Shown here: one piece after another, positions 41,119 to 59,629 of the stretch | How the letters are laid out: each line of letters opens with the position of its first letter | Position numbering within the stretch: the first letter of the stretch is position 1 | Assembly: GCA_048268245.1 (NCBI GenBank) | Contig: JBLWVX010000011.1 | Coordinates: forward strand, 1-64,000 | Reading direction: 5' to 3' | Length of the DNA stretch: 64,000 nucleotides | Source of the DNA: Arcobacteraceae bacterium | GTDB taxonomy: Bacteria; Campylobacterota; Campylobacteria; Campylobacterales; Arcobacteraceae | Translations under genes and position numbers: made by a program | The notes under the pieces: generated by a model | The model's input: the letters and a program-made list of their open reading frames with translations, nothing else | Told to the model about the DNA's origin: nothing | The model's database searches: none

Positions 41119-41129
41119 AAATATTTTTT

Positions 41130-41190
41130 ATGGGGATGATATGGCTTCGATTAGAGCATCGAGGCTTGATTGCATGTCGGCCTGAGCATG
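41130..41190 (+). repeat. attL: 61-bp direct repeat comprising the 5' end of tmRNA
   Basis: ATGGGGATGATATGGC...CCTGAGCATG is identical to 54498-54558. Confidence 0.95.
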
Positions 41191-41271
41191 GTGGCTAAAT
41201 GTTCAAACACATCTCAGACTAATGCCATCTTTAGGTATCTAGAGCTATTTTTTAATTTTAGCTTAAACCTC

Positions 41272-41294
41272 TCATTCACAAACTCATTCACATT
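41272..41294 (+). repeat. Probable integrase arm-type site (left)
   Basis: TCATTCACAAACTCATTCACATT (tandem TCATTCACA) is identical to 54410-54432. Confidence 0.75.
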
Positions 41295-41330
41295 TTACGT
41301 GTTTTAGTCCAATTATTTAGGCTAATTACT

Positions 41331-42563: not shown

Positions 42564-42569
42564 TCTTGT

Positions 42570-45440
42570 CTATCTATCGTAAAACATTCCTACAAAACTA
42601 GTCACTTTATCAATGATATTAGTTATAGCTTTCTTTCTACCTAATGCTTTAGGTTTTTCCACTAAAGTATTAATAACTACATCAGGTTCAGGTTTCTTAC
42701 CATCATAAATATATGTATCTACGACTGACTTAAAGGCTTCTTTATGTAAGTTCTCTTCTTTAACCATTACTTCAAATACTTTGGTTTTTTCTTCTTCCAT
42801 AAAATTATCAAACTCTTCTTCAATCTCTTCAATATTAATGCTATCAAGTGTAGTATCTATGAACTTCTCAATTAATTCTTTCTTACTTCTTAGCTTAGGG
42901 TTTGAGTTTATGATATTAATAATATTAGCTCTTTGTTTTTCTTTTTGTTCTGCTGTCGAGTTTGCATACTTAGCTAGAAGCTTTAGGATATAAGCTACAT
43001 TAATCTCATCTTTATGAATCAACTCTAATTCAAAGTCAACGTCATCAAGTATAGAAACTTTCTCGCTTCCTTGTCCTGTTTTGTTAGCTTTGATTTTATC
43101 ATAAAGGTCAAGGTACTTAGATTTATAGTCTTCAAACATTTGTTCACTCATGGACAAGTCAGACCATTTGAAGTCACTAAACCCATCAAGAATATTTTTT
43201 AGTCTTATTAGCTCTCTAAATGCTTTAATAAACTCTAATTGTTCTTCTTCATCGATGATTGAATCAACACTGCTAACACTTGGAGCAATCTTAATTAATT
43301 CTTGAAATGCTTCATTGAACTTTTGTACATAATACTCATAAGGCTTCATTAAAATAATGTCTTTAGCTTCTTTGTTAGAGAACAATGCAATAGCATCATC
43401 TGTGTTTTTCTTCAAGTTTCTAAAACACACAATGTTACCTTGAGACTTTTGCTCATTTAGTATTCTATTAGTTCTACTATAGGCTTGTATCAGACCATGA
43501 TACTTCAAGTTCTTATCAACATAAAGGGTATTAAGCCTTGGACTGTCAAAGCCTGTTAAGAACATGTTTACTACCAACAGAATGTCTATCTCTTTTTGCT
43601 TAACCTTCTTAGAGATGTCATTATAGTAGTTATAGAAGCTTTGAGAGTCTTTTGTGCTGAACTTAGTGTTAAACATAGAGTTATAGTCTTCAATGTACTC
43701 ATCAAGCTTCTCACGACTGTGTTTATTAATATGAGACTCATCTATGTGTGCTCCATCAGATTCATCAAGTTCATAGATTCCATTAGCATCTTTGTCATCT
43801 TCATTTGCACTGTATGAAAAGATAGTAGCTACTTTTAGCTTGTGCTCTTTGCTCTTGAAAGCTTCATAATACTTGTGAAGAACATCAACACTACTAACAC
43901 ACATCATAGCTGTGAACTCTCTAGAGTGAGTTTTCCTGTCATGGTTAGCTAAGATATAATCAACAATCTTTCCAACCCTTTCTTTACTTTCTAACAGCTC
44001 TTTAACGTCTATGTTTTCAACTTCAATATCTACTTCAGTAGCACTGCCTTCTTTCTCTTTGTATCTTCCTATGTACTCAACTGAGAACTTCAACACATTA
44101 TCATCACTAATAGCATCTGTTATCACATACTGATGAAGCTTTCCATCTTCTCCACCAAACAGCTCTGCTGTAGTTCTCTTTCCATACTTATTGCCTACTG
44201 CATTCTCAGGAAAGATTGGAGTACCTGTAAAGCCTATTAGCTGAGCTTTTTCAAAGAAGCCTGTGATGTTTTTATGGGTTTCTCCAAACTGTGACCTATG
44301 GCACTCATCAAAGATGAAGACAACGTTTTTATCTCTTAAAGCTTCCATCTCTTTTAGGTAGTGAGGTTTACTAATAGCTGTATTTAGCTTTTGAATGGTA
44401 GTGATGATTAGGTTACTATCTTTTAGTACACCTTTTCTGTCTTTGTGTTTTCCTAAGAACTGATTCACTAGAACTTTAGTATTGTCTGTTCCATCAACTG
44501 AACCATCAGAGAAGCTGTTGAACTCTTTTGAGGTTTGAAAGTCTAAGTCTTTTCTATCAACAACAAAGACAACCTTATCAACTTCAGGAAGCTTCACTAG
44601 GATTTGAGATGCTTTGAATGATGTTAGAGTTTTACCTGAACCTGTTGTATGCCAAATGTAACCATTCTTTTGAGTGTTCTTAATCCTATCAACAATAGCT
44701 TCAACTGCATAGTATTGATAAGGTCTTAGAACCATTAGTATCTTTGGAACTTCAGCTAAAACAATATACTTACAAATCATCTTAGACACATGACATCGCT
44801 CTAGAAAGATTGAAGTGAACTCCTCAAGGTTTTTGATGTTAATGTTGTTCTTATCAGCCCAATAGAAAGTCTGCTTGAATGACTGCTTACGATTGTTCGC
44901 ATAGTACTTAGTGTTAACACCATTAGAGATTACAAAAAGCTGTACATAGTGAAATAAAGCACTGTTAAACCCATATGAGTGTCTTTGGTATCTGTTGATT
45001 TGATTGAAGGCTTCCTTTAGTTCTAGACCTCTCCTTTTTAGCTCAATCTGAACTAGAGGTAATCCATTGATAAGGATTGTTACATCGTATCTGTTCTTGT
45101 ACTTACCTTCTATAGTAACTTGTTGTGTAACTTGAAATAGATTCTGACACCAATGCTCTGAGTCTAAAAACTCAATATACTTTGTGTCTCCATTGTCTAA
45201 AGTTAAAGCATATTTGTCTCGAAGAAGTTTAGCCTTCTCAAAGACATTACCTTTGTTTATATGGTTTAGGATTCTTTCAAACTCATCAGAGCTTAGACTT
45301 GTCTTGTTGTGTTTTTCAAGTTGTGACTTTAGGTTTGACAGAAGTGAAGCTTCGTCTTTGATGACCACTTTCTCATAGCCTTGAGAGCTTAACTGTTTTA
45401 CTAAGTTGTCTTCTAGTACTGCTTCACTTTGTTTACTCAT
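42570..45440 (-). CDS. hsdR: Type I restriction endonuclease subunit R
   Basis: RYDV...NGLPLVQIELK nuclease motif; HTTGSGKT, DECHR, FTGTP, LTGFD and QAYSRTNR helicase motifs. Confidence 0.95.
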   Translation of the reverse strand: MSKQSEAVLEDNLVKQLSSQGYEKVVIKDEASLLSNLKSQLEKHNKTSLSSDEFERILNHINKGNVFEKAKLLRDKYALTLDNGDTKYIEFLDSEHWCQNLFQVTQQVTIEGKYKNRYDVTILINGLPLVQIELKRRGLELKEAFNQINRYQRHSYGFNSALFHYVQLFVISNGVNTKYYANNRKQSFKQTFYWADKNNINIKNLEEFTSIFLERCHVSKMICKYIVLAEVPKILMVLRPYQYYAVEAIVDRIKNTQKNGYIWHTTGSGKTLTSFKASQILVKLPEVDKVVFVVDRKDLDFQTSKEFNSFSDGSVDGTDNTKVLVNQFLGKHKDRKGVLKDSNLIITTIQKLNTAISKPHYLKEMEALRDKNVVFIFDECHRSQFGETHKNITGFFEKAQLIGFTGTPIFPENAVGNKYGKRTTAELFGGEDGKLHQYVITDAISDDNVLKFSVEYIGRYKEKEGSATEVDIEVENIDVKELLESKERVGKIVDYILANHDRKTHSREFTAMMCVSSVDVLHKYYEAFKSKEHKLKVATIFSYSANEDDKDANGIYELDESDGAHIDESHINKHSREKLDEYIEDYNSMFNTKFSTKDSQSFYNYYNDISKKVKQKEIDILLVVNMFLTGFDSPRLNTLYVDKNLKYHGLIQAYSRTNRILNEQKSQGNIVCFRNLKKNTDDAIALFSNKEAKDIILMKPYEYYVQKFNEAFQELIKIAPSVSSVDSIIDEEEQLEFIKAFRELIRLKNILDGFSDFKWSDLSMSEQMFEDYKSKYLDLYDKIKANKTGQGSEKVSILDDVDFELELIHKDEINVAYILKLLAKYANSTAEQKEKQRANIINIINSNPKLRSKKELIEKFIDTTLDSINIEEIEEEFDNFMEEEKTKVFEVMVKEENLHKEAFKSVVDTYIYDGKKPEPDVVINTLVEKPKALGRKKAITNIIDKVTSFVGMFYDR

Positions 45441-45456
45441 GGGTTTCCTTTAGTCT

Positions 45457-46677
45457 TTACACAAACATCTGTTGTAGGAGTGCTTTCTTGAACTGTTTTG
45501 TTGCTTCTAGTTGTCTTGTAAACTTTTGTATTTTATCATCTAAGCTTTGGAAGAAAACAACTATCTTCGATTGTTCTTCTAACTCAGGAATAGATATTGA
45601 ATCACTTATTGCATAAGAGTTATTGATTTTCATATCATTTTTTGCTCCTTTGTGAACAAGTGGTCTAAAGTAACTATTCACATTGTCATCAAGCTGAAAA
45701 TAGTAGTCAATAAATAAAGGATTCAAGTTTTCTTTTGGTCTATAAACTGCATAAAGAGTTGAAACAACTCCAGCTTTTTTCTTGTTAACCTTTACAATAC
45801 CATAAGGATTAGCCTTCAATGGACTTTTAGTATAAACAATATCATTAACCTTTACTACATGATAGTTATTTATTGACGCCCCTGCAAAAGAACGACCTTG
45901 AAACTCTATTTGATTAACAATCCCAAACTCTCCCGAAACTGATAATACATCATTTTTTGTATAGCTATCATCAATGTTTCTTTCTTTGTGTTCATACATT
46001 AGTTCATTTAGCTTTCTTTTTTTCCAAGAAGGAAACTCTCTTCCATCATCAGCTTTAAACCTAATCTCTTGTGAGAAGATTTTCTGCATCACACCTTTTT
46101 TGTATTGCTTTAGTAGTTCTTCTTTTTTTGTTAGCTGTTCTATTTTAGTATCAACTGAAGTAAGGAATGAAGCTATCTTTTCTTGTTCTTGTTTTACAGG
46201 AATTGATATAGGAATACTTTTGATTATAGAACCACTTAAGTTTTTTTGTCCACCATCATTACTAAGATTTCGGATGTTATCATACTGTCCTGCTAAATAT
46301 TGATATAAGAATATATAACTTGTATCTTTTGGTTTGATAGATGCACACGCTTGATTTGTAGTTGCTTGTATTTTTAAAATACCTACTTTGCCTCTTGTCT
46401 TACCTTGTCCATACATAGCCATCAGTATAGTGTTTTTTTCAAATAGTTTGGCAGATGAGTTATTTAAGGCTTCTTCTGTTATGTATTCTTCTGCACCTTG
46501 GATATCTTTAAAATCAATCAAAGAAGTAGTAACCCAAGGTATAGTTCCATTCCAATAAGAGGATTTGCTTCTTGATGGGGTACCACCTGAACTAACAACA
46601 GCTATATTACCAATATTAGTATTTTCCCACTCTCTACTAAACTCTTTGAATCTTAACTTAGGTACATTACTCATCAT
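45457..46677 (-). CDS. hsdS: Type I RM specificity subunit S
   Basis: VPKLRF N-terminus; two TRDs with repeated EQ.KI..F..S.D.KI...KK...Q..F conserved regions. Confidence 0.93.
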   Translation of the reverse strand: MMSNVPKLRFKEFSREWENTNIGNIAVVSSGGTPSRSKSSYWNGTIPWVTTSLIDFKDIQGAEEYITEEALNNSSAKLFEKNTILMAMYGQGKTRGKVGILKIQATTNQACASIKPKDTSYIFLYQYLAGQYDNIRNLSNDGGQKNLSGSIIKSIPISIPVKQEQEKIASFLTSVDTKIEQLTKKEELLKQYKKGVMQKIFSQEIRFKADDGREFPSWKKRKLNELMYEHKERNIDDSYTKNDVLSVSGEFGIVNQIEFQGRSFAGASINNYHVVKVNDIVYTKSPLKANPYGIVKVNKKKAGVVSTLYAVYRPKENLNPLFIDYYFQLDDNVNSYFRPLVHKGAKNDMKINNSYAISDSISIPELEEQSKIVVFFQSLDDKIQKFTRQLEATKQFKKALLQQMFV

Positions 46678-46683
46678 CTACCT

Positions 46684-48246
46684 CTAAAATGGCTTAGCAA
46701 TACCAAGCTCATCACAGAACTCAGCTATTGTTTCATCTGTAGTAACCATATCTGACTCTAAAGCTTTTAGCTTAGAACTAACTTCATCTAAGTCAACAGG
46801 TTCTTCTTCTTCAAAAGTGTCTACATACCTAGGGATATTTAAGTTATAGTCATTCTCTTTGATTTCATCCATTGAAGCTAGGTGTGAATACTTCTCTATC
46901 TCTTCTCTATTAGTGTAAGTCTGTACAATCTTAGAGACATTCTCATCAGTCATGTAGTTTTGGTTCTTAGCTTTCTCAAACTCATTTGAAGCATCCATAA
47001 ACAAGACATTGTCACTATCTTCTCTGCACTTCTTAAACACTAAGATACAAGTAGGGATTGAAGTTCCATAGAAGATGTTAGCAGGAAGACCAATAACAGC
47101 GTCTAAGTAGTTTCTATCTTCAATCAGGTACTTTCTTATGTGTCCTTCTGCTGAACCTCTGAACAGTACTCCATGGGGTAAAACTATAGCCATAGTTCCA
47201 TTATCATCTAAGTGATGTATCATATGCTGTACAAAAGCAAAGTCTGCTTTAGAAGAAGGTGCTAGTTTTCCATACTGAGAGAATCTGTCATCACTTAAGA
47301 ACAAATCATTAGCTGACCATTTAGCTGAGAATGGAGGATTAGCAACGATTGCTTCAAACCTGTCATCCAAGTGCTGAGGGTGTTCTAAAGTATCTTCATG
47401 CTTGATGTCAAACTTTCTGTAGTGCACATCATGCATAATCATGTTCATTCTTGCTAAGTTGTAAGTTGTAGCATTTAACTCTTGACCATAGAAGTTAGAG
47501 ACATCAGATACCTCTTTAGCAACTCTAAGAAGTAGTGAACCTGAACCACATGTTGGGTCATACACAGACTTTAGTTTTGTCTTACCAGTAGTTACTATCT
47601 TAGCTAAGACTTTAGATACTTGCTGAGGTGTATAAAACTCTCCTGCTTTCTTTCCTGCACCTGCGGCGAACTGACCAATAAGATACTCATAAGCATCACC
47701 AAGGATGTCACTTTCGGTATCTTTTAGTTCAAAGTCTATGTTATCTAAGTGAGTAAGAACTCTTACTATCAACTCATTTCTTTTTTCAACAGTTTTCCCA
47801 AGTTTCACAGAAGTTAGGTCAAGGTCATCAAACAGGTTTACGAAGTCATCTTCACTGTCATGCCCCATTGTTGTTTGCTCTATGTTTCTTAGGATTGACG
47901 TTAGGTCTTCAAGGATGAAGTTGTTCTCTGTTCCACTTCCTCTTTTTGCTATTTCAGAAAATAGTTCATTAGGTCTTAAAAAGTATCCTAGTTTTTCTAA
48001 AGCTTCATCTTTAACTACTTCAATATACTCTTTTTCTTGTTCATGTCCTAAAACTTCTAGATATGAAATACCATCCTCTTTTAGTATTTGTGTATTTGCA
48101 TAATCTTCAATCTTCTCAGATAAGTACTTGTAAAAAATAAATCCTAGTATGTAATCTCTAAACTCATCAGCATCCATCTTCCCTCTAAGGGTATCTGCAA
48201 TGTTCCATAGTTGTCTTTCAAGTTGTTTTTTATGCTCGTCGCTCAA
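46684..48246 (-). CDS. hsdM: Type I RM N6-adenine methyltransferase subunit M
   Basis: LW.IA..LRG, GEFYTP, DPTCGSG and NPPF motifs; TTG start. Confidence 0.95.
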   Translation of the reverse strand: MSDEHKKQLERQLWNIADTLRGKMDADEFRDYILGFIFYKYLSEKIEDYANTQILKEDGISYLEVLGHEQEKEYIEVVKDEALEKLGYFLRPNELFSEIAKRGSGTENNFILEDLTSILRNIEQTTMGHDSEDDFVNLFDDLDLTSVKLGKTVEKRNELIVRVLTHLDNIDFELKDTESDILGDAYEYLIGQFAAGAGKKAGEFYTPQQVSKVLAKIVTTGKTKLKSVYDPTCGSGSLLLRVAKEVSDVSNFYGQELNATTYNLARMNMIMHDVHYRKFDIKHEDTLEHPQHLDDRFEAIVANPPFSAKWSANDLFLSDDRFSQYGKLAPSSKADFAFVQHMIHHLDDNGTMAIVLPHGVLFRGSAEGHIRKYLIEDRNYLDAVIGLPANIFYGTSIPTCILVFKKCREDSDNVLFMDASNEFEKAKNQNYMTDENVSKIVQTYTNREEIEKYSHLASMDEIKENDYNLNIPRYVDTFEEEEPVDLDEVSSKLKALESDMVTTDETIAEFCDELGIAKPF

Positions 48247-48320
48247 TCTAAACCTTATAAATATTATCTGTATAAAGTTAAGATATTACCTAAAAAGTGC
48301 TAATTATAAAATAAAAATAA

Positions 48321-49478
48321 CTAACTTACATATTCATATAACGTTATATCTTGGTTACTAATAATTGAGCCATCTTTTATATCATCAACTCCTAAATGAA
48401 TATAGTTTAAACTAGTATGATAACTTTTATGTCCCATAAATGTCATAATTTTATACCCATTCCATTTACTTACACTCGCTAGTCTTGATGCAACTGTATG
48501 TCTCAGTCCATAAGGGACATAGTCTTTATGTATTTCTTTATCAGTCCAGTTTAGATGTTTTTTCATTATTGTCCATCTGTTGCCAACCATATCTTGTGTT
48601 AGTCTAGTGAACTTTAGAGTTTTGTATTTACTGTCACTTACAATGTCTTTAAGTTCAATATCGCAAGGAAGTTTCTTTTTATGTATGATAGTTAGAGAGT
48701 ATTTAATATGCTCTTTAATAGCTTTTAGTACAATGCCTTCAAGTGGCAAAGTCCTGATGAGATTGTTTTTTGTTGAATTATATGAACCTCTAGATATTGT
48801 AACATGGTTATTATAGAAATCAAAGTCACCTAACTGAAGATTAAAATATTCTGCTGGTCTTAATCCAAGTGATATATTAATTATAAAATACTTTATCATT
48901 TCCCAATCAGTACTATTATTTGTTTCCTTGTATCTTTCAACTAATGTTTGGTACATTTGATATTCTTCATATCTTGAAAAGCATATTTTTCTTTTCTTAT
49001 ATACAGGCATTCTCAAACCTTCAAATGGAAGTTTATTGTCTAAAATTAGTTTTTGTTTATTTTCCAAATACTCAATTGATGTTTTTAATGTTGATATATA
49101 GTGATTTATTGTTTTATTTGCGTAATTCTTCTTTATAAGATACCTTTTAAACCTATCAAGGTCATCGACAGTTAATGTTGAGATAAGTCTACTTTCTCCG
49201 AAAAACATAGATATTTTTTCCCATCTCATTAGTGGATTTTTTTTATCCCTAAAATATATCCATTTAGTTTCATAAATATATGATGTAGCATCTTTGAAGC
49301 TTAATCCTAAGTCTATTTCTTTGGGATTGAGGTACTCTATAGGGTTAATAATATGTTTCTTCCATTCATCTTCTTTTTCTAAAGCTTTTTTCTTTATTTT
49401 TGTAGTCCAAGTTTTTTGATAACGTATTTTATTAATTATAAAATCAGACTTCCAAAATCCATTTTGTTTCTTATACAT
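48321..49478 (-). CDS. Second tyrosine recombinase (phage-integrase-like)
   Basis: TIN.Y.S.L, GLRPAE, TKN, YGLRHTVASRL, MGH and NYIH motifs; AAGGAG SD. Confidence 0.88.
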   Translation of the reverse strand: MYKKQNGFWKSDFIINKIRYQKTWTTKIKKKALEKEDEWKKHIINPIEYLNPKEIDLGLSFKDATSYIYETKWIYFRDKKNPLMRWEKISMFFGESRLISTLTVDDLDRFKRYLIKKNYANKTINHYISTLKTSIEYLENKQKLILDNKLPFEGLRMPVYKKRKICFSRYEEYQMYQTLVERYKETNNSTDWEMIKYFIINISLGLRPAEYFNLQLGDFDFYNNHVTISRGSYNSTKNNLIRTLPLEGIVLKAIKEHIKYSLTIIHKKKLPCDIELKDIVSDSKYKTLKFTRLTQDMVGNRWTIMKKHLNWTDKEIHKDYVPYGLRHTVASRLASVSKWNGYKIMTFMGHKSYHTSLNYIHLGVDDIKDGSIISNQDITLYEYVS

Positions 49479-49705
49479 TTTTCTCCTTTATATGAATAAT
49501 ATTGGAAAAAATAAAATAAAGTCAAAGTTTTGAAAGACTATGATTACCCAAAGCTTACGAATCTACTCGTTAAGTAAAAAAAATACCAAAAAAATCTGAA
49601 ACCCCATAATGTAAACCACAGTAAAAGTTATCCCCCCATACCCCCTCTTAAGTTCACAGATAAAGAACTTTAAGGGGAAACTTCAAGCCCAACTATTAAA
49701 ACCTT

Positions 49706-49794
49706 TCTGTGAGAAGCCTACAAGCTCTTTTCCTTTTTTAGTCTAATGTTTATATCAAGAAATAAGCTCTAGGGTTTCTACATAACCTTACAGA
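49706..49794. repeat. Imperfect long palindromic element, left of the resolvase
   Basis: TCTGTGAGAAGCCTACAAGCTCTT ... AAGCTCTAGGGTTTCTACATAACCTTACAGA; related to 50553-50643. Confidence 0.5.
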
Positions 49795-49927
49795 CTTCTA
49801 TTAATCTATCAATCTATAACCTTCATTAAAACTAAAGTATTTTATAAAGTCTTATACTTGACAAAGTATTTATAATTTGATAAAGTTTCAAGCATAATAT
49901 ACCTTAAGACTTGAAAGGAGATTTTAA

Positions 49928-50560
49928 ATGACAATAGGATACCTAAGAGTTTCAACTGATAGACAAACTGTAGAGAACCAAAAGAGTGTTATTAGAGCTT
50001 ACTGTAATGATAAGTTAAAGATAACTGTTGATGATTGGATTGAAGTTGTAATGAGTTCAAGAAAAGACTTAAGAGACAGAAAGATAGATGAACTTTTATC
50101 AATACTTTCAAAAGATGATAAAGTGATTGTGAGTGAACTATCAAGGTTAGGTAGGTCAACTCAAGAGGTTCTACAGACTATAGAGAAGCTTATGAAGTTA
50201 GAGGTAGAACTACATATCATTAAACAAAACCTTACAGTTAATCCAAACAATAAGAATGACTTTGTATCAAAAGCTATGATTACTTTATTTGGTCTATTTG
50301 CAGAGTTAGAGCGAGACTTAATCAGTCAAAGAACTAAAGAGGCTTTAACAGCTAGAAAAGAACAAGGAGTTACTTTAGGGAAGCCTAAAGGTACACTTCA
50401 AAAGTCAAAATATGATGAGCATAAAGATAGGATAGTTGAACTTAAGAGTTTAGGTTTATCACTTAACAAGATTGTATCTAATCATTTAGAGCCAGTTATG
50501 GGAAAAGGTAACTGTTCTGTTCAAAGCTTATCTACTTACTTAAAGAAAAGAGGTCTGTAA
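49928..50560 (+). CDS. Small serine recombinase (resolvase/invertase)
   Basis: GYLRVST..Q, ELSRLGRS, FAELER.LI.QRT..AL and G.P motifs; C-terminal HTH. Confidence 0.93.
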   Translation: MTIGYLRVSTDRQTVENQKSVIRAYCNDKLKITVDDWIEVVMSSRKDLRDRKIDELLSILSKDDKVIVSELSRLGRSTQEVLQTIEKLMKLEVELHIIKQNLTVNPNNKNDFVSKAMITLFGLFAELERDLISQRTKEALTARKEQGVTLGKPKGTLQKSKYDEHKDRIVELKSLGLSLNKIVSNHLEPVMGKGNCSVQSLSTYLKKRGL

Positions 50561-50643
50561 GTCTATCTTACAGCTCTTCTTTTAATCCACTAATACTTTT
50601 TATTAACTTACAACTAAAAGGCTTTGTAGGGTTTCCTACAGAC
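50553..50643. repeat. Imperfect long palindromic element, right of the resolvase
   Basis: GTCTGTAAG..CTTACAGCTCTT...TAAAAGGCTTTGTAGGGTTTCCTACAGAC; arms are self- and mutually complementary. Confidence 0.5.
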
Positions 50644-50710
50644 TGTCTATACCTCAAAAATTACTTACTAAAACTTATTTATTACAATACCCATAAAATC
50701 GAGCCTTTTT

Positions 50711-50898
50711 GAAGATACCCCTCTCTAGGAAGAGTGTTTAACTTATCAACTTCTAAAAAGACCTTTATTAAGGCTTTCTCTTAAGAGGGTGCAGTATAGG
50801 AGAGAACTTAATTTAGTAATCTCAATAATTCCCCTTAATTAGGTAGTTATCTGAAGGGGGACCCGTATAGGAAGTAAAGAGTGCTTCCTCTAGGAGGA
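50711..50898 (+). promoter_or_regulatory. Array of four motifs with T7-type RNAP promoter geometry (degenerate 71-bp repeat)
   Basis: DAAGR-N8-T(A/C)TA-GGAR at 50711, 50782, 50853 and 50876; function inferred. Confidence 0.45.
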
Positions 50899-50931
50899 AA
50901 ACTAAAATCAAAATCATAAAAGGAGGTTCAG

Positions 50932-51411
50932 ATGAACAACAATCAAACACAACTGAAAGATGTTGTAATGTTTACTGATGGCTCTTGTTTAGATAATGGT
51001 AGAAATGGAACTGGAGGATACTGTGCATTACTACAGACACCTAACAAGAAACATCAAAAGATAATTAAAGGTAGTGAGTTAGATACTACGAATAATCGTA
51101 TGGAGATAACAGCTATCATTGAAGGACTAAAGGCAATTAAAAAGCCTTCAAGAGTTACAGTCTATAGTGACTCTAATATAACTGTAAGAGCTATTAATGA
51201 ATGGCTTGAGGGTTGGATAAGAAAGAACTTTAGAAAGGTTGCTAATGTAGACCTTTGGAAAGAGTATTTAGAGGTATCAGCTAAACACCAAATTAAGGCT
51301 ATATGGGTTAAAGCTCATAGTGGTATTTATGAGAATGAGCTTGTAGATGATATAGCTAGAAGTGAAGCTATGAAGTTACATAGTAAGAGAGGTGTTCATT
51401 ATGAGTATTAA
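50932..51411 (+). CDS. rnhA: Ribonuclease HI (island-borne)
   Basis: FTDGSC, TTNNRME, YSDS, NVDLW and WVKAHSG...NE.VD motifs with catalytic residues intact; AAGGAGG SD. Confidence 0.93.
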   Translation: MNNNQTQLKDVVMFTDGSCLDNGRNGTGGYCALLQTPNKKHQKIIKGSELDTTNNRMEITAIIEGLKAIKKPSRVTVYSDSNITVRAINEWLEGWIRKNFRKVANVDLWKEYLEVSAKHQIKAIWVKAHSGIYENELVDDIARSEAMKLHSKRGVHYEY

Positions 51412-52189
51412 GATTGATAACTTTAAACCATTTGATGAGTATGCAAAAGAAACTTACTTAAGTATTCTACATAACAAACAGCTCAAAACTCCTCAAGCAC
51501 ATATTACAGATGAAGATAGAAATATTCTTGAAAGAAAATGTCATGCTTATACTAAAAACAATTATGAAGTCTTTAGTGAGTACCTTGAAGATATAATTAT
51601 TAGCTATGAAAATGAAGCAGAACTTGAAATACATAATACTACGCTCTTAATAAATAAGCATACAGGAGAGATTTTATCTGAAGATTTTCATATCATAGAC
51701 AAGGATTATATAAAACTAAAAAGAAAAGAGTTAAATAGTCTTAAATATTACAAAAAGAAGTTTACTAAATCAAAAACTAATAGTAAGGTTAAAGTTGAAA
51801 ACTATAAGTCTAACCACAGATATACTAAGCTCTTCTCTAAGGTTAAACCATTATTTAAAAACCATAAATATCTTGGTATCTTTTATGACATTAGTAGAGA
51901 ATTAAGCCCTTATGAAAACATAGTATCTCAACAAAACAATGATGGTAGATTTACTCCATTAACAACTAAACAGATACAAGAGAGGTTTAATATTTCTCCT
52001 GATGATATGAAGAGATTTAAAGCTGAAGCAAAAAGACTTAAAGTTATTAGTGATGTAAAACTAAAAGGAAGAACTTTAGGTATAAGGGTAAATCCAGTTT
52101 ATGCTCTAAATGGGCAAGATATAAGTGAAAGCTTATATAAAGCATTTAAAGACTCTAAAGAGTTTATAGAGAACTTCAAAGAAAACTAA
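51401..52189 (+). CDS. Putative replication-type / HTH DNA-binding protein (RepL-like)
   Basis: IN..TGEI motif, C-terminal HTH-like LT.KQI.E.F.IS and RVNP.Y...G; overlaps the rnhA stop. Confidence 0.45.
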   Translation: MSIKIDNFKPFDEYAKETYLSILHNKQLKTPQAHITDEDRNILERKCHAYTKNNYEVFSEYLEDIIISYENEAELEIHNTTLLINKHTGEILSEDFHIIDKDYIKLKRKELNSLKYYKKKFTKSKTNSKVKVENYKSNHRYTKLFSKVKPLFKNHKYLGIFYDISRELSPYENIVSQQNNDGRFTPLTTKQIQERFNISPDDMKRFKAEAKRLKVISDVKLKGRTLGIRVNPVYALNGQDISESLYKAFKDSKEFIENFKEN

Positions 52190-52532
52190 AGGTGTATATA
52201 CGCACTATTATAAAATCACTAGAACACCTATAATATGGGCTTTATTAAAGATTTAAGTTAACAAATGCTTCTTATATATAGTGAAAAATCTATAGATAAC
52301 TTATATATTTAATTAGTATAGAAATGAGTTTAGGCTAGAGCTATATTAGCATTAAAAGTAAAGCTATTACTAGACCTTAATTTCATTTCTAAACAATCAT
52401 AATCTTAGAGTAATACTTAAGTAATAACTATAAATTGACTTTAAATAAATACATTACTCCGTGTCTTTGATACTACCTATTTCTCTTTATCTAGTCTAAA
52501 AATATCACTTTCAACAAATCTCATTACAAAGG

Positions 52533-52740
52533 CTATCGGGTTTTTAGTCCCTCTTCACTGCTTCCTCTAGGAGAAGAAACTACAAAATCTCCATTGGAAA
52601 TATGTTCTATTGCCCTTATTATAGGCTTAAGTAGAAAGACTATCGGGTTTTTAGTCCCTATTACACCCCCTCTAGGAGAAGACTTTAATTAAAACTACAA
52701 AATCTCCATCGGAAATATATCCTGTTGCCCTTATTGTAGG
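52533..52740 (+). repeat. Two about 95-100-bp direct repeats (52533-52625 and 52640-52740)
   Basis: Shared CTATCGGGTTTTTAGTCCCT, CCTCTAGGAGAAGA, AAACTACAAAATCTCCAT.GGAAATAT and TTGCCCTTATT.TAGG blocks. Confidence 0.9.
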
Positions 52741-52783
52741 GTTAATTTAAAAAAATAAAACAAGTACATAAAAGGAGAAGTAA

Positions 52784-52846
52784 ATGCCTACAGTTAAAGA
52801 GGTACTAGAAGAGCAAGCAATAGAATATGAAAGAAGTGCGTTATAG
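52784..52846 (+). CDS. 20-aa small ORF MPTVKEVLEEQAIEYERSAL
   Basis: AAGGAG SD; the stop abuts the GGGAG SD of the next gene; may be a remnant. Confidence 0.35.
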   Translation: MPTVKEVLEEQAIEYERSAL

Positions 52847-52857
52847 GGAGACCTAAA

Positions 52858-53503
52858 ATGAAAACTGAAGTTATGATGATAAGACAACTTGGAGATATTC
52901 AAGTAAGACAATCTAATCAGACTGAGATGTTTAATGCTACAGATTTGGTGAATGGGTTTAATGAGTATAGAAAGGCTATGGGATTACCTGAGAAGAGACT
53001 ACAACACTATTGGGAAAATGACTCAACTAAAGAGTTCCTTGAAGCCCTAGAAATGGAGCTTAGTTTAAATAACCGGAAATCCGGTGAATTAAAAATCACT
53101 AGAAAAGGAAAGTATGGAGGGACTTATGTTGCTCCTGAAGTGTTCGTAGATATTGCTATGTGGTTAAACCCTAGCTTCAAAGCTAAAGTAATGATTTGGG
53201 TGTCAGACAATCTGTTAGGTGTTAGGAATACTTCAGGTATCCAACAGCAAGTTATGAACAGAGTTAGCTGAGAAGTTCAGTAATAGGACTACAAAATGGT
53301 TGATTATGAGGTTTAGTAAAAGAATTAATGAACATATCCTAGAGGAAGGTCAAGACTGGCAGAGTGCTACTACAGAACAACTAGAGCAAAGACTAGCACT
53401 ACAAACTAAGATTATAAATGCGTGTGAGCTTTTACCTGATGGTATTAGTGAAGATGAGTTCTGTGAAATAGTGTTTAAAGTTAGACCTAAAGTTGTAGCT
53501 TAA
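52858..53503 (+). pseudogene. KilA-N domain protein split by a frameshift near 53264
   Basis: FNATDL...W.N..TKEF..AL...KYGGTY...IAMWLNP.F; the +1 frame continues LAEKFSNRTTKWLIMRFSK...W.SAT.EQL into ORF 53300-53503. Confidence 0.75.
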
Positions 53504-53514
53504 GGAGGACTACT

Positions 53515-53619
53515 ATGTCAATACATATATACAAGATGTTCTTAGCTAGAGGACACAATAAAAAAACAGCTCAGAAGATGTATAAAAATTATATAGGAAA
53601 AATGAAGGAGGAAAAATAA
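53515..53619 (+). CDS. 34-aa basic small ORF MSIHIYKMFLARGHNKKTAQKMYKNYIGKMKEEK
   Basis: TAAGGAGG SD; fills the gap between neighbouring genes almost exactly. Confidence 0.5.
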   Translation: MSIHIYKMFLARGHNKKTAQKMYKNYIGKMKEEK

Positions 53620-53620
53620 A

Positions 53621-54073
53621 ATGATTAAAAATGAAATATTAAAAGTAGATATTAGTGAGGAAGTTGTAGTAGAGGTTCAGCCACACAAAGAGCATGAGTG
53701 GCTGTTGTCAAGTAAAGATGTGGCTGAAAGTTATGGTTTGAGTAGAAGTGGTCTTACTAAAACTAAAAGTAGATATGCAGATGAACTTGAAGAAGGTAAA
53801 CACTGGGTTGTGACAGATTGTCACACCCTTGGAGGAAAACAAAAAACAGTTTATTGGACTAAAGAAGGCGTAGTAATGTTAGGGTTCTTCATTAAGACAC
53901 CTACAGCTAAAAAGTTTAGAAGATGGGCTTCAAACTTTATCGTTGAGAAAAGTAAAGAACCAAAAGCCCCTGTAGTACCTCAGACATACATAGAGGCACT
54001 TCAAGCTCACTTAGAGTCAGTTAGAGAGTCAGAGGAAGGTAATAGAGTTATTACTTTACAAGCGCCTAAATGA
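53621..54073 (+). CDS. Phage antirepressor-like protein, probably C-terminally truncated
   Basis: KDVA..YG, TLGG.Q....WT.EG...LGF...AK.FR.W; PQTY.EAL and QAPK linker followed by an abrupt stop. Confidence 0.65.
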   Translation: MIKNEILKVDISEEVVVEVQPHKEHEWLLSSKDVAESYGLSRSGLTKTKSRYADELEEGKHWVVTDCHTLGGKQKTVYWTKEGVVMLGFFIKTPTAKKFRRWASNFIVEKSKEPKAPVVPQTYIEALQAHLESVRESEEGNRVITLQAPK

Positions 54074-54409
54074 TGACTTGATGGATAAAGAGAGCCTTAT
54101 GTACCCTATGAATGGTTTGTAATGATATAAGTACCAAACTATAAAGACCCTGAGATAAGACTAGAGAGTATATGGTTATTACTCTTGAGGGTGTTAGCTG
54201 AGATTAAGCCTATTGCAGATGAAGTTATAGCAAATGGTTTAATTAAGCCTGTAGGTAAGTAAGATATTAATAAAACATTTATGTTTAAGTTATGGTCATG
54301 TGGGTCATTTAGTGTACCTACATGATGACCACCTATTGAGAGAAGTGTTACTCAAGACATATAGTTACAGTTAAAGAATCTTATCTCAACTATAAATTAA
54401 ACTTTAAGG

Positions 54410-54432
54410 TCATTCACAAACTCATTCACATT
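54410..54432 (+). repeat. Probable integrase arm-type site (right)
   Basis: Identical 23-mer to 41272-41294. Confidence 0.75.
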
Positions 54433-54466
54433 ATACTAATTTTAAGAAATACTTGGATAGTATTTC
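54431..54466 (+). promoter_or_regulatory. Island-supplied replacement promoter for ssrA (putative)
   Basis: TTATACTA.TTTTAAGAAA...GA-TAGTAT-TTC parallels the native upstream sequence at 41083-41118. Confidence 0.5.
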
Positions 54467-54497
54467 GTTTTACTAAACACGCCGTAAATGAATATCG

Positions 54498-54558
54498 ATG
54501 GGGATGATATGGCTTCGATTAGAGCATCGAGGCTTGATTGCATGTCGGCCTGAGCATG
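54498..54558 (+). repeat. attR: 61-bp direct repeat restoring the ssrA 5' end
   Basis: Identical to 41130-41190. Confidence 0.95.
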
Positions 54559-54897
54559 CCGTTACGCGGCTCATTTTTTTTAGACGCAAACAATACAAAT
54601 TACGCTCCAGCTTACGCAAAAGCTGCGTAAGTTTAACAACTTATAACGAGCTCCCTTCGGGTTGAGCTTTTGGAGGTTCGCTCTGTAGATTCTATCTATG
54701 CAGGATTTAGCGGATTCACCCAGATAGATTACCAAAGAGAGATTGATCGAATTTCTTTGGGACATCCTTAGATCTTAGCTTTTTAGTTGCCTTGCAGGTT
54801 GAGCTGCTAGAAAGTGAAATTTTTCAACCTCACTAAGCATGTAGACGTCAAGAGTAGATGTTTTAAGACTCCGGTTCGATCCCGGACATCTCCACCA
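54500..54897 (+). ncRNA. ssrA: tmRNA; tag (A)ANNTNYAPAYAKAA encoded at 54586-54630
   Basis: 5' GGGGATG pairs with 3' CATCTCC-ACCA (G3:U alanine identity); T-arm CCGG-TTCGATC-CCGG; tag ORF ends in Ala-Ala. Confidence 0.97.
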
Positions 54898-55082: not shown

Positions 55083-56300
55083 ATGGCTAAAGTTATAGTA
55101 CCTCTGTCAAGTACACAAATTAAAAGTGCAAAACCAAAAGAAAAAGATTATAAACTTTTTGATGGTGGTGGTTTATTTTTATTAATAGCTAAAACTGGTG
55201 GTAAAAGATGGAGAATGAAATACAGATTTAATGGAAAAGAAAAACTTATTGCATTAGGTGTTTATCCTCAAATTTCATTAAAAGTTGCTAGGGAATTAAG
55301 AGAGCAATATAAATCTATGATAGCACAAGGAATTGATCCAAACCAAGAAAAAAAACAAAAAAAAGAAGAGACTAAAAGAACTGAGGAAAAAAAAGAAAAT
55401 ACTTTCTTTAAAATTTCACAAGAATGGCATAAAAATTATGCAACTGAGGTATCAGAGAATTATCATTATAAACTTGAAAGAGCATTAGAAAACTATATAT
55501 ATCCTTTCATAAAAAACAAAGCTATAGAAGATATAACAAGACTAGATATTATAGAAATACTTCAAGATTTAAAGAATAAAGGTATTATAGACACAGCAAA
55601 TAGAGTTTATATGCTTTTAAATAAAATATATAAATACGCGGTAACATTGGAGTATGTTCCTCATAACATAATAGCAGATATTGAGCAAAAAAATATATTA
55701 GGTAAAATAGAGAAAAAACATTATCCAACTTTTACAAAAGATGAAGACATAAAAGGATTACTTCTATCAATTGATGAATATGAAGGTGATTATTCAACAA
55801 AAATGGCTTTAAAAATACTTCCTTATATATTTGTAAGAAGTTACAATATAAGACATGCTAAGTGGTCTGAAATAAATTTTGATACAAAAGAATGGATTAT
55901 ACCAGCGTCGAAAATGAAAACTAAAAAAGAATTTATATTACCTTTACCTAAAAATGTAATAGAATTACTTTATGAAGTAAATAAGATTACAGGACAAGAA
56001 GAGTACATTTTTCCAAGTTATAGACAAAGAAACAGACCAATGAGTGACAATACTTTATTATCAGCTATAAGAAGGATGGGATATACAAAAGAAGAATTTG
56101 TACCTCACAGTTTTAGAGCAATGTTTTCAACAATAGCATATGAAAATATGGAAGAACATGGATATAGTAGTGAAGTTATAGAATCACTACTTGCTCATGT
56201 AGAAAAAAATAAAGTGAAAGAAGCTTACAATAGAGCATCTTATAAAAAATCAATGAGAGGATTAATCGAGTGGTATGCTAATTATTTAAAAAATAAGTAG
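55083..56300 (+). CDS. P4-like tyrosine integrase
   Basis: AKPKEK.YKL.DGGGL.L...GGK.WR..YRF.GKEK..ALGVYP arm domain; FVR, KMK, HSFR, LAH and AYNR motifs. Confidence 0.95.
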   Translation: MAKVIVPLSSTQIKSAKPKEKDYKLFDGGGLFLLIAKTGGKRWRMKYRFNGKEKLIALGVYPQISLKVARELREQYKSMIAQGIDPNQEKKQKKEETKRTEEKKENTFFKISQEWHKNYATEVSENYHYKLERALENYIYPFIKNKAIEDITRLDIIEILQDLKNKGIIDTANRVYMLLNKIYKYAVTLEYVPHNIIADIEQKNILGKIEKKHYPTFTKDEDIKGLLLSIDEYEGDYSTKMALKILPYIFVRSYNIRHAKWSEINFDTKEWIIPASKMKTKKEFILPLPKNVIELLYEVNKITGQEEYIFPSYRQRNRPMSDNTLLSAIRRMGYTKEEFVPHSFRAMFSTIAYENMEEHGYSSEVIESLLAHVEKNKVKEAYNRASYKKSMRGLIEWYANYLKNK

Positions 56301-56417
56301 CCACAAATTTATCTTTTTAAATTTTTTCATTCCAAATAATCTATAAATTACTAATTATTTATATTTTATAAATATATACAATACATTATAAAAACGATAT
56401 TTATCAATATACTATAT

Positions 56418-56485
56418 TCACTATAGGGAATTTATTTAATAATCATATTCATGTAATATTTTATTATTAAATCACTATGGGGAAT
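56418..56485 (+). promoter_or_regulatory. Two near-identical 14-bp boxes (putative XRE operators)
   Basis: TCACTATAGGGAAT (56418-56431) and TCACTATGGGGAAT (56472-56485); the first lies in the quasi-palindrome TTCACTATAGGGAA. Confidence 0.5.
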
Positions 56486-56489
56486 AATT

Positions 56490-56735
56490 ATAGAATATTT
56501 AGAAATATCACAAAAAGAGATAAGTAACTTTCATACTAAAATTGCTGAAAATGTAAAAAAAATAAGACAAGAAAAAAAAGTCACTCAACTTGAATTAGCT
56601 CTTAGAATTGGTCATAAGTCTATGAGTACTATCGCAAAAATTGAATCTAATCTTGAAAATAAACACTATAACTTAGAACAATTATATAAAATTTCTAAAG
56701 CCCTTGATGTAGATATAAAAGAATTCTTTTTATAA
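56490..56735 (+). CDS. XRE/Cro-CI HTH regulator with non-canonical ATA/ATT start (absent from the ORF track)
   Basis: Hand translation IEYLEISQKEISNFHTKIAENVKKIRQEKKVTQLELALRIGHKSMSTIAKIESNLENKHYNLEQLYKISKALDVDIKEFFL*; GGGGA SD upstream; in-frame TAA at 56454. Confidence 0.8.
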   Translation: MEYLEISQKEISNFHTKIAENVKKIRQEKKVTQLELALRIGHKSMSTIAKIESNLENKHYNLEQLYKISKALDVDIKEFFL

Positions 56736-56745
56736 AGAGAGTAAA

Positions 56746-58332
56746 ATGTCAAAACTTGAGTCTTTAATTGAAAAACTGTCTAAATCTTCACCTGAAGCAG
56801 TAAATACTCTAAATAGTAGTACAGATGAAATTATAGAATATCTTCATATAGAAACAGATATTGAAGAAAGATATTTAGAGTTACTAAAGCAAAATAAACA
56901 AAATAAATGTTTAATTTTTCTTTGTGGTAGTAGTGGTGATGGTAAATCAGCCATTATAAACAGACATATAAATACTTTTAAAGATTCTTATAATTTTCAT
57001 GTTGATGCAACTCACAGTTTTAAACCAAATCAAACTGCAATTGAAGCTTTAACTGAAAGTTTTAAGAAATATCAAAATGATAATAAATCTTTAGTTATTG
57101 GAATTAATATTGGTATCATGTTAAATTTTACAGACCATCTAATATCAGAACTTGAAGAAATACAAAAAGCAATCAAAAAATTTTTAGATCAAAAAAAAGA
57201 TAGTAAAAACGTCTATTTTATTAACTTTGAAAACTATTCTAAATTTAATTTTCAAGATAATAAAATAGAATCTCCTTTCATAAAAAAATTATTGAATAAA
57301 ATTACAATTGAGTCTGATGATAATCCTTTCTTTAAAGCTTTAATTGAAGATAACAAATCTAATATAAGTTCAATAGTACATCAAAACTATAGATTATTAT
57401 CAAACAATTATCTACAAAATGAAATTATTAATTTACTTATTCTTTCTAATCTAAAATATGATCAGTTTTTAACAATAAGAAGTCTTTTAGATTTTATTTA
57501 TATCTTATTAAAAGGACCCAATTTATTGGTTAATCAGATCTTTGAAGATACTTCAAATGATATTATTAAAAATATAAAAAAAGAAGACCCCATATTAAAA
57601 AGATCTTTTTTATTAGATAAGTTTATACTTGAAAGATTTAGTTCAAAAAAAGATGATTCTTTAAATAGATTTATTGATGAATTTAATGATCTATTTAAAA
57701 AAGAAATTTTAGACTCAAAATGTCCATTTACTCTGATAAGGACATTTTTTATATTTAAAGAAATGGAAATTTCAAATAATTATCATAAAAACTTTTTAAA
57801 AGACTTCGACAATGCTGAATTAATAAATTTTGTTGAATTGATATCAATTCATAGAGACTATAGAGAAGAGCATAGAAAAAGAGTAAAAGAATTCTATGAA
57901 AAAGCTATTAAAGCTATTTATATTTTTATCAATAAAAACTATCCTGATTTAGTTAAAAAAAGTTTTGTAGTTTTATCTTCAGATAAAGAATTAACAATCT
58001 CTGCATATGCAAAGATATTACCTAATTGGAATATTATTAAATCTTCAAAAACTGATTCATTTAGATATTTTCCTTTTTATCTAAAAATTAATGGTGAAGA
58101 GTTAGAAAAAGAAATCCATATTACACTGAATATGTACCTTATGATTAACCTAATTAATAATGGATATAGACCAAATAAACATGATAGAAACACAATTATT
58201 ATCTTTGAAGAATTAATTGAATCCGTATTAGAATCTGCCGTACATTCTGATAAATTAGCAATCATAAAAAAAGATATGATAAAAACATTTTCTAAAGATG
58301 AAGATGAAATAGAGGTAGATGATGAAATCTAG
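56746..58332 (+). CDS. dptF: DNA phosphorothioation-dependent restriction protein DptF (DndF)
   Basis: LSKSS.EAV, IFLCGSSGDGKS, H.DATHSF.P, GINIG and GYRPNKHD motifs. Confidence 0.88.
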   Translation: MSKLESLIEKLSKSSPEAVNTLNSSTDEIIEYLHIETDIEERYLELLKQNKQNKCLIFLCGSSGDGKSAIINRHINTFKDSYNFHVDATHSFKPNQTAIEALTESFKKYQNDNKSLVIGINIGIMLNFTDHLISELEEIQKAIKKFLDQKKDSKNVYFINFENYSKFNFQDNKIESPFIKKLLNKITIESDDNPFFKALIEDNKSNISSIVHQNYRLLSNNYLQNEIINLLILSNLKYDQFLTIRSLLDFIYILLKGPNLLVNQIFEDTSNDIIKNIKKEDPILKRSFLLDKFILERFSSKKDDSLNRFIDEFNDLFKKEILDSKCPFTLIRTFFIFKEMEISNNYHKNFLKDFDNAELINFVELISIHRDYREEHRKRVKEFYEKAIKAIYIFINKNYPDLVKKSFVVLSSDKELTISAYAKILPNWNIIKSSKTDSFRYFPFYLKINGEELEKEIHITLNMYLMINLINNGYRPNKHDRNTIIIFEELIESVLESAVHSDKLAIIKKDMIKTFSKDEDEIEVDDEI

Positions 58333-59629
58333 ATTAAATAACATTACAGTAAATGATATTGGATCAAAAAATGATGTTAAAAATTTTTATCCTTTTACAA
58401 CTAAAGATGATAGAAACAAAATACAGTTTTCATTTAACCAAATTATAGGACTTATGATTTCATATATTTCGTCAAAGAAATTACATGATTTTGAATATGA
58501 AAACTTCAAAGATAACTGCATAAAAAAACTTGAAGAATGTATTGATGATGACGAAGCCATAAAATTATTAGAAAACGTTTATTTTAAAGATAACTCTATA
58601 GCTATTGATTCTTTATTAACAAAACAAATTGATATTGCCGAGAATAAATCAAAAAAAGTATTTGAAATATTTAAAGAACTAATTAACGAACAAAATTTAG
58701 ATATAAGATTTGACTCTAATTTAAACTTTTTAGAACAGATAATCGAAAATCAATTAAAATCAGAACTTGTAAAAACAAATTTTAGCAATAAAAGAGGATC
58801 ATACTTAAAGTTTTTGGAAAAAGTATTTATAAAAGATTTAGAGTTTTTAAGTTCTAATAAACACTACTTTAATAAATCACTAGAGAGTTTTTTAGAGCTA
58901 TACCTATTTATTTATTGTTCTCAATTGGCTCTAAATATTCAGCCTGTTGAAAATGCTTTATCAACACCTTCATCAAAAGAATTATATTTTATTCTAAATA
59001 ATGAAACAGCAAGTAAAGAAAGAAAGAAAATTGAAGAGTTTGGATATAAAAAACTCTATGATAAAGCTAAATATATTTTCCCTTACTTTTCACTTTTATC
59101 AGTTTTCTCTAAAGTCCTAGAAAAAGAAAACCTAAAACTTTTTGAACTAGAAAATATCTTTCAGGAAGAAGATAAAGAGCTAATAGATAGTTTTCATGAA
59201 AAATTTAGAGAAGCTAAAAAACTAGAAAAACTTGAAATAGCTTCTAAATCATTGAATGAAGCTATTCATTCATTATTTAAATCTTCTTTTGAACAATTTC
59301 AAGAGGGGAATCAAGTAGATAGAAAAAATGCTTTAGATAAGTATTTAAAAGCATTTGAAAAGCAAGCAGCAAAACCTTTTTTAATCAATAGAGGAAGAGC
59401 TGGGAAAGTATTAGTTTTAGATCAAGATATATTAATTTTATTAACGAACGTATCAATTGGCAAAGAGAAAAAAATTAGATTTCATGAGTTAATAAATGAG
59501 TTTAATAAAAGAGGTGTTTATTTTGACCTAAAGTCTCAAGCAGAATTAATAAATACATATGAAAAAATTGGAAATATAGAGAGAAAAAGTGATAGTGGAG
59601 ATGCAGTTTATGTTAAAACAACAATATAA
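58319..59629 (+). CDS. dptG: DNA phosphorothioation-dependent restriction protein DptG (DndG)
   Basis: Y.F.Y.SQLAL, E.AS.ER, RGRAG.VLVL.QD...LLTN and GN.ERKSDSGDAVYV motifs. Confidence 0.88.
   Translation: MMKSRLNNITVNDIGSKNDVKNFYPFTTKDDRNKIQFSFNQIIGLMISYISSKKLHDFEYENFKDNCIKKLEECIDDDEAIKLLENVYFKDNSIAIDSLLTKQIDIAENKSKKVFEIFKELINEQNLDIRFDSNLNFLEQIIENQLKSELVKTNFSNKRGSYLKFLEKVFIKDLEFLSSNKHYFNKSLESFLELYLFIYCSQLALNIQPVENALSTPSSKELYFILNNETASKERKKIEEFGYKKLYDKAKYIFPYFSLLSVFSKVLEKENLKLFELENIFQEEDKELIDSFHEKFREAKKLEKLEIASKSLNEAIHSLFKSSFEQFQEGNQVDRKNALDKYLKAFEKQAAKPFLINRGRAGKVLVLDQDILILLTNVSIGKEKKIRFHELINEFNKRGVYFDLKSQAELINTYEKIGNIERKSDSGDAVYVKTTI

Follow-up and report, generated by a model that had tools for sequence, protein, structure and literature searches.

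A 13.4-kb island integrated in the ssrA gene of an Arcobacteraceae bacterium carries an array of T7-promoter-shaped motifs, which are very probably promoter mimics for T7-like phage RNA polymerases. The array consists of four sites on one strand within 188 bp and was analysed in a stretch of 64,000 nucleotides, hereafter the window, to which coordinates refer unless another locus is named. Judging by sequence, the array and its relatives are built from a fixed frame, upstream boxes and a variable core, with units gained, lost and exchanged between islands.

The four 23-mers named in the original prediction were recovered from the window sequence at 50711, 50782, 50853 and 50876, with a putative +1 G at 50728, 50799, 50870 and 50893, respectively, and the 71-bp spacing between the first three of these Gs is exact. 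The two spacers, which had been called homologous, are identical at 24 of 48 positions without gaps, and alignment of the three 71-bp units gave a mean column identity of 72%. Unit 1 (50690-50733, plus strand) comprises an upstream box from 50690, the class-A box, and site 1 (50711-50733) with core TACCCCTC; unit 2 (50760-50804, plus strand) comprises a class-A box and site 2 (50782-50804) with core GGGTGCAG; and unit 3 (50831-50875, plus strand) comprises a class-A box (50831-50843) and site 3 (50853-50875) with core GGGACCCG. The class-A box is an imperfect inverted repeat. Site 4 (50876-50898, plus strand, core GTGCTTCC) lies head-to-tail with site 3 without a box of its own, and the palindrome reported for it is present. 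A loose start pattern matched 735 times in the 2.68-Mb genome, and the array was the sole 190-bp stretch with four matches on one strand, where the genome scan gave an expectation of 0.002, a chance figure that is post hoc because the pattern was derived from the island sites; one other 190-bp stretch held three matches.

Copies of a 61-bp segment from the ssrA 5' end delimit the island. The left copy, attL (41130-41190, plus strand), is a 100% direct repeat of attR (54498-54558), and the right end (54498-54897, plus strand) also includes an intact tmRNA gene (54500-54897; ARAGORN, Rfam RF00023). A 35-bp repeat with 89% identity (41272-41306, plus strand, and 54410-54444) probably represents integrase arm-type sites. 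Tyrosine integrase 1 (41331-42563, plus strand; PF00589 and DUF6538), which adjoins attL and shares 70% identity with the integrase at the end of the related G011 island, is likely the ssrA integrase. It is followed by the ORFs of a type I restriction-modification cargo (42570-48246, minus strand) with hsdR (42570-45440), hsdS (45457-46677) and hsdM (46684-48246), detected by PADLOC as REase_I, Specificity_I and MTase_I. Tyrosine integrase 2 (48321-49478, minus strand) matches the integrase of a T7-like prophage in genome G328 over its full length (31% identity, E 3e-53), a likeness that points to a T7-type phage origin; among 50,697 phage records it had 18 matches, mostly pelagiphage integrases, and its search of the viral contigs found no contig. 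A serine resolvase/invertase (49928-50560, plus strand; PF00239) and a terminator-like hairpin (50555-50573, terminator scan) precede the array.

The first gene after the array is rnhA, encoding an RNase HI (50932-51411, plus strand; PF00075), which is the second copy in the genome and shares 45% identity with the other one (tblastn, own genome). The next gene (51401-52189, plus strand) encodes a 262-aa RepL-like protein with a C-terminal winged helix, here called rep-like, whose putative replication role follows a lead only (Atlas lead to RepL clusters, 0.93). Its structure model was of low confidence (pLDDT 51) and the fold search returned weak winged-helix matches, none at E<=0.001. Named homologues come from Halarcobacter and Aliarcobacter, which points to an Arcobacteraceae host; the viral contigs, genome contigs and plasmids scanned held no relative, and a weak match was obtained in G077 (E 6e-5). 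The remaining genes (52858-54073, plus strand) encode a KilA-N protein (52858-53271), a short ORF (53300-53503) and a Bro-N antirepressor-like protein (53621-54073), assigned by PF04383, PF02498 and PHROG antirepressor families. The KilA-N and Bro-N genes at 52858-54073 look split or truncated compared with typical antirepressors.

Among the island ORFs, Pfam and PHROGs identified no virion, packaging or capsid-size gene, and neither a packaging signal nor a capsid-modifying gene was identified in the island. An RNA polymerase gene was likewise absent: PF00940 was not found in the 99%-complete genome, the same search being positive in the class sample. A joint from 41129 to 54498, corresponding to the empty site, was present in two of four contig sets, from two studies; these joints may come from related organisms, because the likeness threshold was 85. 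No excised-circle joint was found among the joints listed for the four contig sets, in which contigs show presence and not absence. Directly after ssrA, a second element (55083-64000) carries a P4-type integrase and DndF/DndG-like phosphorothioate defence genes.

T7-like polymerases were sought in the wider class. A PF00940 polymerase was present in 3 of 401 class genomes and a T7-type polymerase in 0 of 184 Arcobacteraceae genomes. Genomes G328 and G511 each harbour a complete T7-like prophage encoding portal, capsid, terminase and integrase; further relatives occur in two IMG/VR contigs and in records of Campylobacter concisus and Helicobacter, and 19 such polymerases form one clade (quick tree, SH-aLRT 100). 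Repeated intergenic motifs in these phages, predicted to be promoters, fall into two classes, each with its own upstream box at about -39 to -27 or -34 to -18. Class-B motifs flank the polymerase gene, and class-A motifs precede the structural block and follow the terminase; motifs also precede the right end. These motifs were first seen with a pattern derived from the island and the training of the models below was therefore not fully blind; plain repeat counting also returned them. No description of a Campylobacterales T7-like phage clade with two promoter classes was found in the literature searched.

Several features of these phages were noted in passing. The Campylobacterales T7-like temperate phages have few promoters (loci G328:C1 about 1614600-1657000, L021-L023; G511:C14, L024-L026; L030, L031, L108 and L110). 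The G328 prophage sits at tRNA-Sec, where a repeat of some 75 bp accompanies the insertion. Ahead of its structural block, a stretch of 106 bp is duplicated in tandem, the copies differing in their promoter cores (28224 and 28330 in the reversed joined region); G511 has one copy, and the G328 duplication is a small version of the island panel. Reading frames appear split for the RNA and DNA polymerases in L110 (9989-12468 and 16040-17996) and for the DNA polymerase in G328, reflecting either broken genes or sequencing errors. In G476 (L013, L014, L019, L020), polymerase matches lie in frames of 644 and 3434 aa and are present twice, which suggests an N4-like prophage.

The T7-like register of the original prediction fits the residue-base pairings of these polymerases. 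PMC11880802 gives the polymerase-base rules 7R with 11C and 9D with 7C, which we converted to promoter positions -7 and -11 ourselves, with residues mapped to T7 polymerase. Phages with Arg746 have C at -7, the phage with Leu746 has A at -7, and the phage with an acidic residue 748 (that with Leu746) has C at -11, so that the pairings 746/-7 and 748/-11 fit those rules in three phage lineages; G328 site 28224 is an exception to the -7 rule. All three phage lineages with DNA have C-C at -9/-8, and all 36 clade polymerase sequences, a redundant set of about 20 clusters, have Arg756 and Arg/Lys758, residues that predict this C-C.

Three same-strand look-alikes downstream of the array had been overlooked, at 52553, 52658 and 52829. 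The first two are good copies that follow the rep-like gene and belong to class B: the 23-mer at 52553 (site 52536-52575, plus strand, core CTGCTTCC) lies in the first of two repeats of about 110 bp, and that at 52658 (site 52643-52680, plus strand, core ACACCCCC) in the second. The core of site 4 recurs at 52553. The seventh look-alike (52829-52851, plus strand) is doubtful because its purine run also serves as the KilA-N ribosome-binding site; it ranked 12,801 in the 23-mer model and 517,873 and 90,465 in the class models described next. A 20-codon ORF at about 52786-52848 overlaps it. Other imperfect inverted repeats, similar to the class-A box but not followed by a start motif, were seen at 52227-52240, 52610-52625 and 52725-52740, and such repeats after the rep-like gene also occur in relatives.

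Models trained on phage promoters recovered the island sites. A 23-mer model, trained on 15 phage motifs only and scored over 5.36 million genome positions, gave ranks 1, 9 and 19 to 52658, 52553 and site 4, respectively, with sites 1-3 at 1145, 2876 and 5221. A class-A model that leaves out the core ranked sites 1-3 at 33, 74 and 2 of 5.36 million, which identifies the array spacers as the phage class-A box; site 4, which has no box, fell at rank 136,814. The class-B model placed both downstream sites within its top 4 (rank 4 is recorded for each). Altogether, the phage-trained models place six island sites in the top 75 of 5.36 million positions. The box of unit 3 has an offset equal to that in the prophage promoter. 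Ungapped 45-mer identity gave no separation for the class-A sites (25-29 vs 27-30 for the background), whereas the weighted model did separate them. A class-B site of the related G011 island shares 34 of 40 bases with a promoter of phage L030, the best background match in the window's genome reaching 24 of 40; a near-identical phage promoter was thus found for relatives (G011 vs L030) and not for the four array sites.

Nine related loci were examined, and seven have arrays: L005 (seven upstream and three downstream units), L006 (four), G006 (one), G011 (one and two), G089 (four; this island was located via the motif itself), L007 (four) and L008 (six). G103, which holds the closest rep relative (87% identical), has only degenerate look-alikes as judged by eye, and the pattern detected no sites in G165; both loci count against the phage-promoter reading. 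The related islands thus have one to seven upstream units, in which the frame is fixed and the cores are exchanged, and the stack grows and shrinks between islands while the flanks stay conserved. In a set of 21 upstream sites from six islands, defined as plus-strand matches with at least three G+C in the core, AAG occupies -16 to -14 in 21 of 21 although it lies outside the search pattern, and positions -11 to -5 carry 0.3-0.6 bit of information. The claim that the core is the variable part and the frame the constant one therefore extends to the related islands, where cores are exchanged. C-C at -9/-8 was counted by hand in 9 of these 21 sites. The AAG signature is absent from every phage promoter examined, among which there is no class-A promoter from an L030-type phage because the L030 contig is a fragment.

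Cores recur between islands in new combinations; the core of site 1 is also found in L005, and the site-2 23-mer has an identical copy in the G089 island. Recurrence alone may be descent, because neighbouring genes are 92-97% identical. In three of four contig sets, all from one study, a natural joint drops exactly two periods, corresponding to sites 2 and 3. Units may be gained or lost when the purine run at the end of one unit recombines with that at the start of the following unit. The upstream and class-B sites are moreover connected by their cores: of seven class-B sites, six differ at no more than one position from a core in the upstream panel of the island they belong to, while the flanks of mirrored class-B and upstream sites are unlike (2-9 of 25). 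In null draws, 3 of 100,000 reached five such cases and 0 of 100,000 reached six. Four box-less downstream matches, excluded from this count, mirror no core.

The rnhA gene after the array is missing in L006, G006 and G011. In these islands (L006, 9826-9885; L010 of G006; G011) a mini-ORF before the next gene preserves the rnhA ribosome-binding site together with the first rnhA codons. A two-gene element, which we take to be IS21-like, interrupts integrase 2 in G011 (L135 10098-12445) and the resolvase region in G006 (L010). One contig of run X1 departs from the window after rnhA at 51415 and its letters resemble, by eye, the start of the P-loop gene that follows the array in G089; both post-array gene variants may accordingly be present in one population.

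The exact 23-mers, expected by the original prediction as repeated promoters of a related phage, were not found there, an outcome that bears on the refuting condition set with that prediction; the comparison covered three phage lineages with DNA, none known to infect Arcobacteraceae. In the viral contigs, the site-1 pattern had 0 matches, the class-B pattern was found only in L030 itself, and of 84 matches to the site-4 core the 80 examined had no box. The class-A pattern gave 43 matches, judged to be chance, and none has the AAG frame and a GC-rich core; three of them lie near replication genes of other phages, with the frame absent. A match of 17 of 18 bases in L270, a T7-type phage, was rejected as a single-copy match spanning a gene end and a ribosome-binding site. 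The 50,697 phage records yielded only chance matches to island sites. Among 184 genomes of the family, the upstream-site pattern occurred in one, the own genome, and is too strict for known relatives; the class-A pattern occurred in six, of which four were judged chance, with AT-rich cores.

Site 1 and 52658 agree with the clade polymerases at -9/-8/-7; sites 2, 3, 4 and 52553 do not, and for these either the matching phages are unsampled or the units are dead. The misfit bears on the alternative that the array is an archive, in which the sites are true copies of phage promoters, one or two of them live and the rest relics or drifted duplicates. In agreement with an archive, sites 2-4 fit no sampled polymerase at -9/-8, units are lost in nature (the joint at sites 2 and 3; the single upstream unit of G006 and G011), and cores common to the window and G089 may reflect simple descent. 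However, cores that do not fit (that of site 4, at 52553, and two in L005) reappear within the class-B frame, to which the upstream frame is unrelated; drift would not produce this, and the frames are invariant around very different cores. We therefore consider an archive unlikely, and regard it as probable that the panel holds several live specificities.

Under the reading of the array as phage-polymerase promoters, the island would stay silent at the array before infection by, or induction of, a T7-like phage. The polymerase of that phage would then start at the unit that fits its specificity loop and transcribe rnhA and the replication-type gene, and the downstream pair would drive the KilA-N/Bro-N antirepressor-like genes. 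If different cores serve different phage polymerases, the panel would thereby widen the helper range. In the weakest step of the scheme, transcripts from the array would in addition act as primers for replicating the island, in the manner of the T7 primary origin; RNase H would process the RNA-DNA hybrid, and the island would then be mobilised as a satellite. A satellite-type output rather than pure defence is, overall, slightly favoured, and a multi-helper sensing panel of a satellite is the interpretation towards which we lean by a similarly small degree. The diversified panel sensing several helper phages, as originally proposed, is upheld in so far as the frame and boxes occur in T7-like phages of the same order and the cores are exchanged; the exact 23-mers were not found, and sites 2-4 are without C-C at -9/-8.

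The same promoters could instead serve defence or interference, the array acting as a polymerase decoy, or infection triggering an RNase H that destroys phage RNA primers and R-loops, in either case without mobilisation. The island indeed has no virion, packaging or capsid-size gene, RNase H comes first after the array and a type I restriction-modification system is aboard. Against this, rnhA is gone after the array in L006, G006 and G011, the features constantly found with the array are genes of replication and antirepressor type, att repeats and integrases, and rnhA and the winged-helix gene had no PADLOC match, leaving a purely defensive output rather improbable.

Operators or iterons bound by winged-helix or antirepressor-like island proteins, the alternative offered with the original prediction, are disfavoured, as the array is shared with islands having other downstream genes. 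It precedes the winged-helix gene in the window, an unrelated P-loop YonV-like gene in G089, there with the identical site-2 23-mer, and another HTH gene in G011, and the three post-array genes had no significant mutual similarity. Retention of the array in islands in which an unrelated gene takes the place of rep-like argues against iterons, as does the 87%-identical rep relative of G103, which has no clear array. Site 4 does form a palindrome, the class-A box is an imperfect inverted repeat, and the direct repeats have an AT-rich stretch and a RepL-like gene beside them; yet the counterpart of the palindromic site in G089 and L005 has no palindrome, conservation within the repeat is lowest at its centre, and the cores differ within the array, where iterons would be near-identical repeats co-varying with Rep. 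Such a role is highly improbable. Chance, or host signals such as sigma-70 promoters, ribosome-binding sites or RNA hairpins, is hardly a credible explanation, for although the GGAG runs resemble ribosome-binding sites, the box has a -10-like hexamer and the region folds at z = -2.1, none of 20 sigma-70 consensus sites falls in the array (shuffled mean 21.5), sites 1-4 have no start codon at ribosome-binding distance, the array has no Rfam match and the clustering is unique in the genome.

The reading of the array as promoters for T7-like phage polymerases has its nearest counterpart in the enterobacterial T7 islands, reportedly described by Chen and Schneider in 2006, which are said to carry tandem T7-like promoters without polymerase or virion genes, an integrase upstream, terminal direct repeats of roughly 20 bp and few phage-related genes downstream. 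By these features the present island would work like the T7 islands: it has tandem one-strand T7-like promoters within a few hundred bases, no polymerase or virion genes, and tyrosine integrases upstream with terminal direct repeats, which at 61 bp are longer than those said to occur there. It differs in its Campylobacterota host, in promoters of a different phage clade with long upstream boxes, in up to seven units with distinct cores that are mirrored in a second cluster, in the rnhA and exchangeable replication-type gene downstream, and in the 61-bp att in ssrA.

Phage satellites (P4-like, PICI, cf-PICI, PLE, PICMI) are integrated elements of 7-20 kb with an integrase, a replication-type gene, regulators and defence cargo, and marker genes of PICI, P4-like elements, PLE and PICMI encode a small terminase, a capsid-size protein, AlpA and a primase. 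Like them, the island is integrated, att-bounded, without virion genes and with a putative replication-type gene; Pfam and PHROGs found none of the satellite markers (terminase subunit, capsid-size, AlpA, primase) among its ORFs, and the proposed trigger is a helper RNA polymerase acting on a promoter panel, not relief of a repressor. The T7 primary origin has tandem phage promoters, AT-rich DNA and transcription-primed replication. By analogy, the tandem phage promoters and AT-rich DNA seen here would make priming possible; here, unlike at that origin, they lie on an island with a different core per promoter and its own RNase H. As in PMC11880802, T7-like polymerase promoters combine a start region that is conserved with a specificity region that varies, to which the island and clade promoters add upstream boxes; among the supplement rows listed for that source, five of six island core strings were absent and the sixth occurred in rows of unrelated phages. 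No description of this element or promoter panel was found in the literature searched, a search in which most subscription papers fell outside the scope and supplementary tables could list such promoters.

More tentatively, and somewhat nearer to doubt than to belief, the array may be seen as a modular, recombining helper-promoter library whose cassettes are gained, lost, swapped and copied into a second class, making it a record of exploitable polymerases, mostly from unsampled phages. If the reading as a multi-helper panel is right, a mobile element would detect several phages by DNA alone, via the polymerase of the invader. The little-studied T7-island concept would be extended to another phylum, with a testable helper clade, and the polymerase-promoter pairs would be candidate orthogonal expression parts. 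The array itself would predict promoter specificities of phages that are as yet unsampled.
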